Shown here: in pieces, positions 10,751 to 58,227 of the stretch | Position numbering within the stretch: the first letter of the stretch is position 1 | Layout of the letters: each line of letters begins with the position of its first letter | Origin: a virus | Strand: one strand, 5' to 3' | DNA length: 64,000 nucleotides | Virus record (IMG/VR): IMGVR_UViG_3300022539_000610 | Location: 32,001 to 96,000 of that record | Position numbers and translations under genes: made by a program | Notes under the pieces: model-generated | Seen by the model: the letters and a program-made list of their open reading frames with translations, nothing else | The model's database searches: none | Told to the model about the DNA's origin: nothing

Positions 10751-11932
10751 TTATACCCACACCAAAGTTCTGGAATGAAAAATCCAACTATCCAACTTTC
10801 CTACCACCCTATCAAAACCCCTTCCTGTAGAATCCTTTAAGCCGACAGAACTACCCCCATGCCATACTTCATAAATGCTATCAACTAATTTAATTAAATC
10901 CTTCGGTTGGTGAAAGTATCGTTGTTTTCTGATATTAATTCCATCTCTTCTCTGGATTTGCAATCGCCGATTATTCTTTCTTCTTTGGATTACACTGAAT
11001 GGTTTAGATCTAGTTTGCTTCGTTCCACTCGCTATAACGAAGGCATCATTTATATGTGACTTTTCCAAACCTAGATTCACTCTGTTTACTTTCGTTAAGT
11101 AGCCATACGTTCTTTCGATTTCGGGATACCATTTAGTGAATATACTTCTAATGATATTCATAAAAGAGGATTCTTTGTATTGTCTGGCCTTCTTCAACCT
11201 ATGTTCTAAATGTTGCTTATGCAACTTATCATGGCAACTCACATGAAGAAGGGCTCTGTTCTTGGGTCTATCTGTTCCCCCTTTACTTCTAGGTATGATA
11301 TGATGTAATTTCCATGGATCACTTTTCCTATATAGTTTACTACAGAGTTGACATCTACTTTTCTCTCTGGCTAAAACATACTCCTTTATGTTTTGGTATC
11401 CATACAAGTCCCCTTGCTGATACCCAGTGCCTTCGATGTCTGGATTTTCAAGTTTTTGGATATCAAAATTACCTAATTCAACAATTGTTTTAGATATAGG
11501 GAGAAAATCTTTTAACTTTTCTATGACTCTGAAATGGGTTCTAGTTCTCCTTTCTACTGAAGGGGGTAGCCAACCTTCTTTCCTTCTTCTATTGTTGAAT
11601 CTTGGTTCCCGATGTCTTAGTTTACCCCTACGATGCACTCGGTACATTCTACGATCGTCAAGTCGTCTTTTCGTATTACTGTCTACTCTCACCTCACCAC
11701 TAATTAGTTCTTCTTTCTTGGATACACAGGAAAAACCAATGTATTCATAGCCAGAGTCGATGCCGCAGGAAACATCCTGGGTATATTCCTTAGAATCATA
11801 AAGGAGCTGAATAGTGAAAGGTTTTCTCTTTACAACCTTTGCTTTGTCTTCTTTCAACAACAATCTGGCCACAACAGACCATGTTGGCATCAAAGGCTTT
11901 CCAGATTTTGATAAAACAAATACTTCTTTCAA
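10751..11932 (-). CDS. iscB: IscB RNA-guided endonuclease
   Basis: PLMP N-terminus, RuvC-I GIDSG, Arg-rich bridge helix, RuvC-II VELGNFD, HNH HHIIPRSKGGTD..N..CH, RuvC-III SHINDA; TTG start after GGAGG. Confidence 0.93.
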   Translation of the reverse strand: MKEVFVLSKSGKPLMPTWSVVARLLLKEDKAKVVKRKPFTIQLLYDSKEYTQDVSCGIDSGYEYIGFSCVSKKEELISGEVRVDSNTKRRLDDRRMYRVHRRGKLRHREPRFNNRRRKEGWLPPSVERRTRTHFRVIEKLKDFLPISKTIVELGNFDIQKLENPDIEGTGYQQGDLYGYQNIKEYVLAREKSRCQLCSKLYRKSDPWKLHHIIPRSKGGTDRPKNRALLHVSCHDKLHKQHLEHRLKKARQYKESSFMNIIRSIFTKWYPEIERTYGYLTKVNRVNLGLEKSHINDAFVIASGTKQTRSKPFSVIQRRKNNRRLQIQRRDGINIRKQRYFHQPKDLIKLVDSIYEVWHGGSSVGLKDSTGRGFDRVVGKLDSWIFHSRTLVWV

Positions 11933-11944
11933 ACTGTCCTCCAA

Positions 11945-12196
11945 TTATATACTCTACTTCTAAGAGTAGGTTGATTCCCTTCGTCAATGTTATCTTATGG
12001 TTTTTATTTACTACACTAAGACTTTCATCTTTATTTAATAGTAAATCGCAGAGTTCGGAACTAGGGAGGCATTCCGAAGTGCCTATATCATTCACAAGTA
12101 ACGTAGTACACGAAGTACTTAGACTAACCACCTCTTACGACATACATCACTGTATGTGCCTAAACCCCTGAGTTTATTAGGGTTTAGGTAGGTGGC
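11945..12196 (-). ncRNA. omegaRNA (HEARO-type) scaffold
   Basis: directly upstream of iscB; GCCACCT..AGGTGGT helix, CTACGTT, GGCACTTCGGAATGCCTCCCTAGTTCCGAACTCTGCG, AACATTGACGAAGGGA; 3' end approximate. Confidence 0.85.
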
Positions 12197-12490: not shown

Positions 12491-12574
12491 TGGTGGGTGA
12501 GAGAGGAATCGAACCTCTATGCTTTCGCAACGACTTTACAGGCCATGGGACTCACCACACTGTCCAACTCACCC
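12491..12574 (-). tRNA. tRNA-Tyr(GTA)
   Basis: GGGTGAG/CTCACCC acceptor, CT-GTA-AA loop, variable arm, TTCGATT T-loop, encoded ACCA. Confidence 0.9.
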
Positions 12575-31497: not shown

Positions 31498-32235
31498 TCA
31501 TATCGACACTTTGGCAATCTTCCTTACCAGACCAACCTTCGGGTATTGACGTACAATATTAATTGCCTTCTGTCGTTTTAAATGAGTATGGAAAATCTTT
31601 ATCAATGGTAATATCCTGCTCAACTCTTCCGGACAGGCGTGGAAGTCTAATAATAGGTCAACCCGAAAATTCCAATAATAGGACAATGGGTAAATCCCTA
31701 CATCATCAAACTTACTTAGAAGTCGTGAAAAAACAAAACGAGTAGGACCTTGAGAATCTTTTGAGCAAACTGTCTTATACCACCGGGAGAATAATTTTAA
31801 CGTTTTCTCAGTTTTTCTAACAAACATCACACCGTTTTGAAAATGAGAAATAACATTTCCTTTAATTTCTATTTCCTGTCGTGGGGCAAAAGACAGAGCT
31901 ATCTGACGTTGGCCCCTTATAAAATCAAACCCTCTAAGTACATTCCCAACCGGCAAGGTGTCATTGTCGAGTATCAAAGTATGTTCATAAGGTGAGTAAG
32001 CTAAAGCAAGAATCTTAGAAACCATCCCAGGTGCCTGGTGTTCCTTACTTAGAGCCTTATAACTGTCAAAGGACTTTGTAATCTCTTTATTTACTCTTTC
32101 ACCAAAAACAATAGTCTGGGATAAATGGGGATGGAAGTGTCTCAATAAACTAGAAGAACGAAGAACCTCAATTTCCATTTGGGCGATTGACTCAGAATTG
32201 GTGCCTGTGACAACATACACAACACCGGATGTCAC
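31498..32235 (-). CDS. nucleotide-diphospho-sugar transferase (GT-A)
   Basis: SPYEHTLILDND, QNGVMF, WNFR. Confidence 0.7.
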   Translation of the reverse strand: MTSGVVYVVTGTNSESIAQMEIEVLRSSSLLRHFHPHLSQTIVFGERVNKEITKSFDSYKALSKEHQAPGMVSKILALAYSPYEHTLILDNDTLPVGNVLRGFDFIRGQRQIALSFAPRQEIEIKGNVISHFQNGVMFVRKTEKTLKLFSRWYKTVCSKDSQGPTRFVFSRLLSKFDDVGIYPLSYYWNFRVDLLLDFHACPEELSRILPLIKIFHTHLKRQKAINIVRQYPKVGLVRKIAKVSI

Positions 32236-54524: not shown

Positions 54525-54923
54525 TTAAGTACTCAAAAGATTAAGCCACCGCTCAGCCCTAAAACCTTCCTTTGAATACTCACCATCAGCATACATACAA
54601 TACCGAAAAATTCTAGGGAGGAGCGTTCTCCTCACTTCTCGAATTCCATAATGATAATAAATTGCCGAACGTTCAAACTCTGTCCTGTTAGCAAGCTTCT
54701 CCGCAACCAATCTGACTTTACTATATCTCTTCATATTCTCAAGTAAAGTGCTTCCCAATCTCACAGCCCATCTCCACTTCGGATCAAACCGGGCTATTTC
54801 TAGTTTCACTTCTATTGAATAAAGCTCCTCGATCATAAATCCAATCGGCCCAAGTCGATCAAGGGGTACTTTCTTATTTGGTCTACATAACAAACTAGGT
54901 AAATACTTTTTTATATTAAACAT
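54525..54923 (-). CDS. hypothetical protein
   Basis: 132 aa, GGAGGAG RBS. Confidence 0.65.
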   Translation of the reverse strand: MFNIKKYLPSLLCRPNKKVPLDRLGPIGFMIEELYSIEVKLEIARFDPKWRWAVRLGSTLLENMKRYSKVRLVAEKLANRTEFERSAIYYHYGIREVRRTLLPRIFRYCMYADGEYSKEGFRAERWLNLLST

Positions 54924-54997: not shown

Positions 54998-57900
54998 TTA
55001 GCTGAAGTTAGTTACAACAATCCTAACTACGAAGTTAGGAACCACAACCTTCTGTGCTGCCCAAACTGCCGCAGCCTTCTGACTCAGGAGCGGGTTAGCT
55101 CCCGTGGGAAGTGCTGAAGTTACAACAAGCGGCATATCATTATCTTCATTAAAGTTCGTCACACTTTAATCGTAGCCAATTATACACTGACTACTGCTGC
55201 ATCTTTTTGTATACATGCAGATGGGACTATCTCACAATCTATGGTATCAGCAACTTTCCATAGATCCTCACCGTTACTTCCTCCATTTAGAGCTTTACAC
55301 TCTTTGACTAGAGGCTTTCTTACATCAGAAATAGTAAACAACTTCTTCTAATGTTTTTAGTCTCTCAACCTTACAACTGTAGCCCTCATTTGCTTGAGGT
55401 TTAGCTACAGGATTTCGGCTCTTGTATTACCCCTACGCAGCCATACGAAGGGGTTCCACAGATTTAGGTAAGTTTTCCATTGAAGATTGCTCTTCAACGC
55501 CGCATATTTCATACGGGGCGTACACTGCTGCAGCCTCGAAGGGGCTCGTGCCCTTGTAGAGACACAGCACGTGGTTGGCAGTAAGCACAGAATTACTAGG
55601 CACTCTCACTACTGTAATACCATCGAGGGTACCATAGATGTGAGGACCAAGGGTGTTGCCATCAGAAATCTTGGTCCACCCAGGCAGCGTACCTATAATA
55701 GAAGCAGCACTTCGACCAGCAATCATTACAGAGATGGTTCCTCGGCCTGCAAGACCTAACATCAGGTTCTCAGCCCGCATTACAGCATCTTTAAATGACT
55801 GTTTATGCTCGAAATAGCTAACACCAGTTCCAGCAGTATTAGTCCAGTTGTAGCTATTAGTGGCTCCCCAAGTTGCATGGGCATTTACCAAGTTATAGAT
55901 CAACGTGTTCATAACCTCAGCATTGATAGCAGAGATCAAATCCGACGCCAACTCATCCTCAGCAATCATCCCAAACCTACGCCGCAGGGCATAGGAGGCC
56001 TCTAAGCCAATGGTTTCCTTCAAAGCATACACACATGCCATGATGGAATCAGACTCAAGATTCATATAAATCTGGGGTATATCAGTAGCAGCTGCCAGGT
56101 CCTGCTGGTAGTCAACATAAATCGTGTTGCCATCACCAGGATCATTTTCCAACTCTACAACCAGGATACCAGTGGCGTAACCAACTGTTCCCTGGATATC
56201 GTAGCCTACCAGAACTCCTGCACCATTGTCTGTGGCGGTATACGTTGTGCCACCGTACGTTACAGTAACCGTGACCGTATAAGGTCGAATTGGCCTCAGT
56301 GCGAGAGGTATTGTATGGGTGTAACTCAGATCACCATACTCTGTGGTCTCGTCAAACGCTACCTGGGTCTGACACGCACTGGCAAACTCCCTCGGGTACG
56401 CTTCTGCATGGGCACGAGGATCAAAGATCTTCTGCCCAGTAGTTACATTACCCTTGGTTGTTTGGGATAAAATGTTTTTGAAGTAGATGGTTCCCCTTTC
56501 CTCTGGGATCGCCTGAATACTAGCGCAAACCCCTATTGGGCTTGTTCCATATGCTACTGATATGACATCGACATTTATCTTCGCTACAGTTCGCTACTCT
56601 GTAACCGTTAAGCCTTTGCTTAACTGCTGCATGTCTCCATGCAAGGTGTGACTATCTCATCACCTCTTCTAATGAAGAGGGCCTACCGCTTCGTTAGAAA
56701 GTGATCGTCACTTCACTCCCTAATCCGTTTTCACGGAACCCGCTTGGGCCTACTCCCTTCCGGGATAGTCGATGAACTTTCCACACTTAGCACATCTAAG
56801 TGAGTATTAGCTGCTGGTTGCCTTAACAAATCCTCAATCCTCGAAGTTACATCAACAAATCGTTCTTTGACAACGAAAATTTGATAATCCAGTAATTTCA
56901 ATTCCTCAAACTTACTTTTCTTACTTGACTTCATGTAGTAACTATGAGTTTCTTTCAACCTATTCAAAACATCCAAATGCGCTTGATAATCAACCTTAGC
57001 AATAAATAAGTTACGTATCCAGTTTACTACTTTTTTAAACCGAACCCTTCCACTTCCTGGATTTTCTATCTGTAATAATGTTGGATTCGGAATCCGAATA
57101 ATGCAAATATTATAGTTTTCCTTAATATACCTATCTCTACTAACATCGTATTTAAACTGACGTTTATCCACAACGTGATGAAATCCATCCACTTCCACGC
57201 CAAGTCGCAAGAAAGGTATATAGAAATCAAGCAAATAAAAACTACGAGGAGTAAACATAACCTTTTGAAGTTGGACTGAGTTACCCTTTCTGAGATTTTT
57301 ACAGATCTTCTCACGCCTATTCCTAACCATTGTCCCTACTCCACGATACTCAAATGGAAAAGATCCAAACTTAGGCTGGGTACGTAAAAGACCTACAAGG
57401 GCATTAACAACATAATCAAATATATCTTCATACTTAGTAGAAACCAACAAATTTTCATAACGAAACTGCGCTATTCTATCTACCCTTCTCCCACCAACCT
57501 TTATATTATCTATCCTAACATTCCTATAGTCACTATCAATTAACTCAAACTTAAACTCATCATCAAATACACCGACGAATGATGACACAAGTAAAGGTAA
57601 AAAGTTCAAGTTAATACTACGAATCCCAACAATCTCAAACTTAACCCTCCTGACTTTCCTTTTAGTATCATTATAAAGACTAAACTTCCAAGAATCAAGA
57701 ACATGAGGGTTCCTTACCTTACTTGGGTTCAAACGAACATTCCCATAACTACTAACCTGAAATCTATCCAAGTACTTTTTATCGCCAGAATAGATATCTG
57801 CATCTATATTAACCCAATATTCCATCTTCAAAACTCCTTTGCTTCATATCCGATAAGGAAAGAGTGAAGCTTTCTTCTCTTACTAACTATCCTTACCTCG

Positions 57901-58227
57901 TATAGTAAAACTAAAGTCTACTATTGGTCTTCCAGCAATTCAATAGGTTTAAACTTAGGATTACTCCTAAGCCGCTCTCGATGCGAAAGCTACATCAGGA
58001 ATCTTACCCAGTTGAGTCAGGGTTCCATCGTCCTCACAGATAGACCTGTAAATTTCAAAGGCCTCCAACTGCTTGCCTAACTGATAGTAGTCATACGGAG
58101 TGATAGATCTCACTTTAGAAAGAGGACTCTTTTCTAAAAGCTCCATCTGCCCTTTATACCGCTTGAGGTAACCATCAGCATCTCGCTCTACGTTCTTTCC
58201 TAGAGCTTCTTCCGTTATGCTAATCAT
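54998..58227 (-). CDS. major capsid protein (gp23-like); exons 58227-57987, 56571-55513, 55137-54998; 479 aa
   Basis: exons join in frame (241+1059+140 = 1440 nt) giving ..PDVAFDVISVAY.. and ..YAPYMPL..; follows protease-scaffold gene. Confidence 0.92.
55138..55512 (-). mobile_element. group I intron 2 of capsid gene, ORF-less, 375 nt
   Basis: P1 with U-G at splice site (CCGT/GCGG), R GTTGAGAGACTA, S GAGATAGTC, terminal G. Confidence 0.9.
56572..57986 (-). mobile_element. group I intron 1 of capsid gene, 1415 nt, with endonuclease ORF
   Basis: P1 GCTTTCG/CGAGAGC with U-G, P10 CATCGA/TCGATG, P AATTGCTGGAA, Q AACCAGCAG, R GTTCATCGACTA, S GAGATAGTC, terminal G. Confidence 0.93.
56731..57831 (-). 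CDS. intron-encoded endonuclease (NUMOD4-like + DUF559/Vsr-like)
   Basis: FQVSSYGNVR; LDFY..VEVDG.HH..D..RD..IIRIPN. Confidence 0.8.
   Translation of the reverse strand: MKMEYWVNIDADIYSGDKKYLDRFQVSSYGNVRLNPSKVRNPHVLDSWKFSLYNDTKRKVRRVKFEIVGIRSINLNFLPLLVSSFVGVFDDEFKFELIDSDYRNVRIDNIKVGGRRVDRIAQFRYENLLVSTKYEDIFDYVVNALVGLLRTQPKFGSFPFEYRGVGTMVRNRREKICKNLRKGNSVQLQKVMFTPRSFYLLDFYIPFLRLGVEVDGFHHVVDKRQFKYDVSRDRYIKENYNICIIRIPNPTLLQIENPGSGRVRFKKVVNWIRNLFIAKVDYQAHLDVLNRLKETHSYYMKSSKKSKFEELKLLDYQIFVVKERFVDVTSRIEDLLRQPAANTHLDVLSVESSSTIPEGSRPKRVP

Follow-up and report, generated by a model that had tools for sequence, protein, structure and literature searches.

Does a phage capsid gene that is interrupted by two long inserts still yield a capsid protein? 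This question is raised by the major capsid gene of an uncultured sediment phage, found in a stretch of 64,000 nucleotides (nt) comprising positions 32,001 to 96,000 of IMG/VR record IMGVR_UViG_3300022539_000610 (the window). In the list of open reading frames (ORFs) of the window the gene appears only as fragments of 93, 239 and 54 amino acids (aa), as a preliminary description made from the letters alone had pointed out. That description proposed that the fragments belong to one gene of the gp23 type carrying two group I introns. We infer from the DNA, at a probability of about 0.9, that the capsid gene is indeed split by two group I introns and is spliced to give a 479-aa protein. Positions below are those of the window, and the coordinates of all features are collected in Table 1.

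The joined exons encode one gp23-type protein

Removal of the two inserts at the boundaries given in the preliminary description joined three exons into a 1440-nt frame of 479 aa with a single terminal stop. The ATG at 58227 is preceded by GGAGG 5 nt upstream, and the N-terminus encoded by exon 1 aligned from residue 1 with the uninterrupted homolog P0001 and with other homologs. Each junction falls between the first and second bases of a codon, codon 81 at junction 1 (GCT T/TC GAT) and codon 434 at junction 2 (CCG T/AT ATG). Because the first letters of each intron equal those of the next exon, either junction can slide by 1-3 nt with an identical mRNA; only the boundaries in Table 1 leave U as the last exon base together with G as the last base of the intron. 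As this rule holds at one position per junction, the proposed coordinates are exact.

Relatives of the protein were sought among 5.8 billion proteins. The 110 capsid relatives found were mostly uninterrupted and 460-490 aa long, the closest being 81% identical, and those with a name were capsid proteins of 200-kb Rhizobium RHph phages. When compared with 93 full-length uninterrupted homologs, the spliced protein aligned from residue 1 to its end, the five residues on either side of each junction being free of insertions and deletions, and the residues from exon 3 aligned to the conserved C-terminus of all homologs (MPLVVTSALPTGANPL...AAAVWA). The continuous alignment on which the earlier proposal depended was thus obtained.

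The expected likeness to gp23 was likewise borne out. Exon 2 matched the Pfam Gp23 profile PF07068 (52.8 bits against a cut-off of 24.4, E 5e-14); the match ended at the last residue of the exon with 55 profile positions remaining, and in P0001 the corresponding match passes straight through the site of intron 2. Exon 2 had no match in the PDB by phmmer. A profile of the capsid family matched gp23 chains, namely 9UKM (E 4.6e-12) and T4 6UZC/5VF3 (E 1e-6). The second intron had been described as lying within a YxPYxPL motif, and this motif (here YAPYMPL) ranked second in conservation among the 11-aa windows of the protein. On these comparisons the joined product reads as a continuous capsid protein of the gp23 family (T4 superfamily). 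The ratio of nonsynonymous to synonymous substitution (dN/dS) across the spliced frame was 0.11 against the related contig L045 and 0.15 against L044, values that point to purifying selection on that frame.

Both inserts are group I introns

All of the ribozyme elements that had been reported for the two inserts were present. In intron 1, P1 pairs GCUU/UCG with CGAGAGC over 7 bp, with U.G at the splice site, and P10 is a perfect 6-bp helix of UCGAUG with CAUCGA. In intron 2, P1 likewise has U.G at the splice site, with one C-C mismatch, and P10 comprises 4 bp (AUAU with AUAU). The 5-bp P7 helix GACUA/UAGUC is common to both introns, with a bulged A in intron 2, and P3 is formed by CCUAUUG/CGGUAGG in intron 1 and by CUUACC/GGUGAG in intron 2. 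The P3/P7 pseudoknot is flanked in both by R (GUUCA..GACUA) and S (GAUAUAGUC-like) elements. Each intron ends in G, at 56572 and 55138, respectively, and the 3' tail of intron 2 reads GAAGAUAAUG. All core helices of both introns were checked by hand, and all pair. The gap between P7 and P3' (77 nt in intron 1 and 85 nt in intron 2) forms hairpins, which in intron 1 are a UCCC/GGGA stem and an 11-bp helix. By inspection of P7.1/P7.2, rather than with a subgroup-specific model, both introns are of subgroup IA, the phage type.

The search with group I covariance models that had been suggested as a check singled out the right sequences: with relaxed thresholds, the Rfam model RF00028 had no match in the 114-kb record other than these two inserts. 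The layout of intron 1, which holds an ORF of 1.1 kb, was clarified by two contigs (L045 and L053) whose copies of the intron, identically placed, lack the ORF. These 383-nt orthologs scored 82.3 and 79.8 bits, respectively, with RF00028, and in them P3 (CCUAUUG) and P4 (UGCUGG) follow directly after P2. The corresponding 5' strands of intron 1, at intron positions 40-46 and 50-55, pair perfectly with positions 1299-1305 and 1170-1175; their location ahead of the ORF had escaped the preliminary description. Two other placements were ruled out by the ORF-less orthologs, which put the true P3/P4 5' strands at 57947-57932: the Rfam placement of P1-P6 in the 3' end of the ORF (56627-56887), and a P3 read as GAUUG/CGAUC. 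Both inserts are group I introns.

The two introns belong to one family

The preliminary description had remarked on a similar 3' region in the two introns, and the similarity, which lies in J8/7-P7'-P9 and from P9.2 to the 3' end, amounts to 74% identity over 43 nt and 76% over 34 nt. The stems shared by the two introns differ by compensatory changes. A pattern drawn from the common 3' parts retrieved 35 viral contigs, and in an alignment of 29 sequences double compensatory changes were seen at 12 of the 18 predicted pairs of P9, P9.1 and P9.2. Within the 64-kb window, a covariance model (R1) built from 26 of these sequences, with those of the window excluded, found only the two intron 3' ends (intron 1, 70.4 bits, E 3e-13, at 56571-56663; intron 2, 58.7 bits, E 1e-10). 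The 3' domain of one member, L015, matched 462 phage records, including phages of Staphylococcus, Bacillus, Escherichia, Yersinia, Pectobacterium and Vibrio; from this host spread, intron annotations aside, the family is taken to be the classic phage IA lineage. Genes interrupted by family members include those for tape-measure proteins, Sak4, nrdD, portal and sheath proteins and two other families of major head proteins.

Intron 2 gave no significant match in a nucleotide search of the phage collection, and the pattern GAGATAGTCNCANC..TGCATG was found in one contig only, within an unrelated terminase-region intron. A separate observation concerns another unrelated viral contig (L008:3700-5705), whose J8/7-P7'-P9 segment is 88% identical to that of intron 1. 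The segment sits between a terminase-like ORF and a 248-aa ORF, with a LAGLIDADG-like ORF nearby, and the locus is probably an intron-rich terminase gene.

Intron sites are variably occupied among relatives

Occupancy of the intron sites was compared among related capsid genes. In L044 (83% aa identity) the gene is uninterrupted over residues 72-478, and the sites of introns 1 and 2 are empty, as is a third site. The third site lies between YFEH and KQSF, which correspond to codons 336/337 of the window gene, where it is empty as well. L045 combines the ORF-less intron 1 with a 304-nt intron at site 3 and has an empty site 2; L049 has the site-3 intron and also lacks an intron at site 2. The site-3 introns scored 75.8-81.7 bits with RF00028, and their 3' ends were 84-86% identical to that of intron 1. 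A fourth site is occupied in L003, a more distant relative whose capsid gene is 62-75% identical. The intron there carries a 419-aa GIY-YIG ORF; its P9.2 and tail place it in the same family as the introns of the window, and its P1 has the layout of intron 2 (2 bp and a GAAAU loop).

In its first 58 nt the ORF-less intron 1 shared 96.6% of positions with the intron of the window, and in its last 200 nt about 94%. At the nucleotide level the exons were 86% identical to those of L045, as against 94-97% at the ends of intron 1, a gap that fits either recent transfer of the intron or strong constraint on the ribozyme. A relative from a groundwater metagenome, about 90% identical, keeps both introns of the window. 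Its intron 2 differs by U17C and A32G, which turn a U:A pair of P2 into C:G, by C41U and U43C in P3 and by C115U in P6b, and all five substitutions preserve pairs.

Close relatives therefore differ at an identical site both in the presence of the intron and in the presence of its ORF, the distribution examined as a test of homing. The alleles form a natural series for the gain, loss and decay of a homing endonuclease gene, comprising an empty allele, the intron with its gene, the same intron without it, and two further occupied sites. Three of the four insertion sites fall in the 1st, 2nd and 5th most conserved 11-residue windows of the protein, the stretch at about codon 103 ranking 1st, and the remaining one is in the top fifth.

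We tentatively suggest that one related intron lineage may have colonised at least four highly conserved sites (codons 81, ~103, 336/337 and 434) of a single gp23-like clade, in differing combinations and with unrelated endonuclease genes. As part of the same tentative proposal, the site-1 enzyme would have an uncharacterised architecture (a DUF559 nuclease preceded by an HNH-derived module that lacks the catalytic histidine, with a reading frame that runs on through the ribozyme core) and could be a weapon against co-infecting relatives without the intron, and the Ala-Ala ends of unspliced products may be degradation tags. An intron endonuclease of phage PhiPA3 has reportedly been shown to act as a weapon against co-infecting relatives.

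The ends in question arise on translation of unspliced RNA. Read-through from exon 1 would end in ...DVAFASRAA (57967-57987, minus strand) and from exon 2 in ...EPLRMAA (55433-55512, minus strand), each followed by a stop. The ssrA degradation tag also ends in Ala-Ala. Read-through into the intron 1 ortholog of L045 likewise ends in ...SRAA; endings without Ala-Ala result from the introns at site 3 (..VCAR) and in L003 (..VTLQ), and the Ala-Ala endings could be chance.

Intron 1 encodes a putative DUF559/Vsr-like endonuclease

The ORF of intron 1 occupies the P5 loop and, in its last ~30 codons, reads through P4', P6, P7 and P7.1; it ends at a TGA within a GAAA hairpin loop that immediately precedes P7.2. 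A word-indexed protein search with the product returned the query itself only, and an exhaustive HMMER search returned 152 distant relatives, none of them close. Among 32 aligned relatives, 29 matched DUF559 (PF04480; best E 1e-35), and D200, E211, D213, G214, H217, D227 and N247 were invariant. An AlphaFold2 model computed from the alignment of relatives had a pLDDT of 81.9; a model from the single sequence (pLDDT 33) was not used.

Residues 2-113 of the model resembled the N-terminal part of I-HmuI (Z 9.4). Residues 128-279 resembled I-Bth0305I (3R3P, Z 9.3), Vsr (1CW0, Z 9.2) and the DUF559 protein 3HRL (Z 8.9), and are followed by a helical hairpin. The enzyme is accordingly modelled as an I-HmuI/NUMOD4-like module joined to a DUF559/Vsr-like nuclease. 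At the position of the HNH histidine, the N-terminal module has S, N, D or G in the window protein and its relatives, and the role of this module is probably confined to DNA binding. The ending RQ[PS]AAK was seen in several relatives, in place of which the window protein has RQPAAN. Translation of the consensus ribozyme J5/4-P4'-P6 (..CAAUCCGCAGCCAA..) yields this peptide, and those relatives are therefore also P5-loop genes of group I introns.

Proposed mechanism and alternative explanations

In the mechanism that we propose, one late pre-mRNA of about 3.2 kb would be made from the capsid gene, and each insert would fold as a phage IA-type ribozyme extended by P7.1/P7.2 between P7 and P3'. 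P1 would form between the internal guide sequence and the end of the upstream exon, with U.G at the point of cleavage, and P10 between the same guide and the start of the downstream exon. A free guanosine docked in P7 would attack the 5' splice site, the exon released in this way would then attack behind the terminal G, and two such events would produce the gp23-type protein of 479 aa. Both introns would be selfish mobile elements. The endonuclease of intron 1 presumably cuts intron-less capsid alleles of co-infecting relatives, whose repair would copy the intron in, and the ORF-less intron 2 may spread by recombination or through an endonuclease supplied in trans. Splicing, its independence of proteins, and the activity and target of the endonuclease are what we infer.

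Several results weigh against splicing by two group I introns. Neither insert reached the RF00028 gathering cut-off of 50 bits, so that the suggested covariance check was selective for the inserts and fell short in score: intron 1 scored 37.1 bits (E 4.2e-7) and matched in its 3' part only, and intron 2 scored 44 bits over the full model (E 3.6e-9 and 2.7e-11 in two scans). The low score of intron 1 arises because the 1.1-kb ORF parts the 5' strands of P3 and P4 from the remaining core. No P5 pairing could be assigned in this intron. Part of the R1 scores, like the fixed positions of the alignment, follows from gathering the family by a pattern taken from the same introns. The window endonuclease scored 18.1 bits with DUF559, under the cut-off of 20.6. 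Finally, the sequencing runs that contain this DNA are DNA metagenomes only, with no RNA run among them.

The alternative that survives best, although we consider it unlikely, is that splicing of the group I introns takes place in the infected cell alone and is assisted by proteins of the host or the phage, so that capsid supply would depend on cofactors. In a study of Bastillevirinae, four of eight validated introns were spliced in infected bacteria only (PMC11878797). The P5 region of intron 1, unassigned and interrupted by the ORF, would suit such dependence. However, the core helices and both guide pairings are intact in both introns, and the ORF-less ortholog of intron 1 fits the Rfam model well.

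It is very improbable that the capsid gene is dead, having been disrupted in a defective phage by insertions that stay in place. In favour of this, the source is a metagenome record with a CheckV completeness of only 53%. Against a dead gene, the low dN/dS extends across the joined frame, a relative living in another habitat keeps the ribozyme pairs through compensatory changes, a second capsid gene was not seen, and the adjoining protease-scaffold and head genes are intact.

Less probable still is separate translation of the three exons into fragments that assemble, or inserts that are inteins, group II introns or bypass elements: an in-frame ATG (55135) does lie close to the start of exon 3, by chance, but the 5' end of exon 2 has neither a start codon nor a ribosome-binding site, both junctions interrupt a codon in phase 1, the inserts contain stop codons in the frame of the exons and so are not inteins, they match the group I model with no group II family turning up in the Rfam scans, and their lengths of 375 and 1415 nt greatly exceed the 50-nt bypass of T4 gene 60. 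An assembly chimera was ruled out, since one contig spans the stretch at a depth of 11 and independent metagenomes share the junctions.

Comparison with known introns

Phage group I introns had been said in the preliminary description to lie mostly in genes of DNA metabolism. This view is dated: introns in capsid genes have been published, and the genes interrupted by many members of the present family encode capsid, portal, sheath and tape-measure proteins. Published examples of group I introns in capsid genes come from Lactococcus phage Tuc2009 and mycobacteriophage LittleE, the latter confirmed by RT-PCR and N-terminal sequencing (PMC3706429), and crAss-like Delta and Zeta phages have them too, including one capsid gene in five fragments (PMC7886860). 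The published cases resemble the present one in that the virion gene with the highest expression is interrupted by a group I intron, which sometimes carries an endonuclease gene, and several introns per capsid gene are documented. They differ in that the capsids of Tuc2009, LittleE and the crAss-like phages belong to other HK97-fold families and other hosts, whereas the gene described here is of the gp23 family, and the sediment phage that carries it has the Rhizobium RHph phages as its closest relatives with a name. In reviews of T4-related phages, the only introns listed are those of td, nrdB, nrdD and gene 43 (PMC2993671), and our literature search found no paper on an intron in a gene of the gp23 family.

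With other phage IA introns (T4 td, nrdB and nrdD; Twort orf142; those of SPO1-like phages and Bastillevirinae; and T7-like DNA polymerase introns), the two introns share the core, P7.1/P7.2, the U.G pair of P1 and the terminal G, as well as the J8/7-P7'-P9-P9.1-P9.2 domain and the placing of an ORF in a peripheral loop overlapping the core. They are unlike those introns in having a capsid gene as host and, in the P5 loop, an endonuclease of the DUF559/Vsr type and not of the GIY-YIG or HNH type. The nearest parallel to the enzyme is I-Bth0305I (PDB 3R3P), encoded in the recA intron of Bacillus phage 0305phi8-36. It shares the intron-encoded Vsr-like fold (rmsd 2.8 A, 95/97 residues) but is only 18% identical; its motif is the Vsr-like 'EDxHD', in contrast to D...ExDGxxH...D...N, of DUF559 type, in the window protein, which also has the I-HmuI-like N-terminal module.

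The current understanding of group I introns is unchanged by these results. The T4-superfamily capsid gene joins the late genes that tolerate introns, so splicing would have to match the highest protein demand of the infection cycle. Gene callers break this gene up into three unrelated pieces, with the result that it is missed or truncated in protein clustering and in phage classification based on capsids.

Feature coordinates and other observations

Table 1. Capsid gene exons, introns with their structural elements, and intron sites in relatives. Positions are those of the window unless a contig is named.
Feature	Position	Strand	Details
Exon 1	58227-57987	minus	241 nt, codons 1-80 and first base of codon 81
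Intron 1	57986-56572	minus	1415 nt, group I, with ORF
Intron 1 internal guide sequence	57983-57974	minus	
Intron 1 P2	57971-57954	minus	GUAA loop
Intron 1 P3 5' strand	57947-57941	minus	P3' 56688-56682
Intron 1 P4 5' strand	57937-57932	minus	P4' 56817-56812
Endonuclease gene (putative)	56731-57825	minus	364 aa, ATG 57825, AAGGAG 8 nt upstream
Intron 1 P6/P6a	56811-56776	minus	
Intron 1 P7 5' strand	56770-56766	minus	J8/7 and P7' 56662-56650
Intron 1 P7.1-P7.2	56765-56694	minus	
Intron 1 P8	56680-56663	minus	
Intron 1 P9-P9.2	56643-56583	minus	
Exon 2	56571-55513	minus	1059 nt, last two bases of codon 81 to first base of codon 434
Intron 2	55512-55138	minus	375 nt, group I, without ORF
Intron 2 internal guide sequence	55509-55498	minus	
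Intron 2 P2	55496-55481	minus	GCAA loop
Intron 2 P3	55472-55467 with 55272-55267	minus	intron positions 41-46 with 241-246
Intron 2 P4-P6	55462-55367	minus	two extra P6 hairpins
Intron 2 P7	55364-55358 with 55229-55224	minus	
Intron 2 P7.1/P7.2	55357-55275	minus	83-nt insertion
Intron 2 P8	55265-55237	minus	
Intron 2 P9-P9.2	55220-55148	minus	
Exon 3	55137-54998	minus	140 nt, end of codon 434 to codon 479 and TAA
Empty capsid site in L044	around GTGGCTTTCGATGTAATT		
Site-3 intron	L045:2092-2395; L049 about 391-681; one further contig		304 nt, ORF-less group I
Site-4 intron	L003:3540-4996		1457 nt, after ASVQPI (about codon 103), RF00028 32.6 bits

Directly downstream of the capsid gene lies an ORF of 132 aa (54525-54923, minus strand) without a Pfam or PHROG match. 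Elsewhere in the window, the minus strand of 10751-12196 holds a HEARO RNA (RF02033, 112.7 bits against a cut-off of 83) and, immediately downstream of it, an ORF of 397 aa whose product has RRXRR (E 7e-59) and HNH (E 8e-12) domains. From these matches, the RNA and the ORF are predicted to form an IscB-like RNA-guided nuclease module in the phage genome. The module is adjoined by a tRNA-Tyr at 12491-12574.

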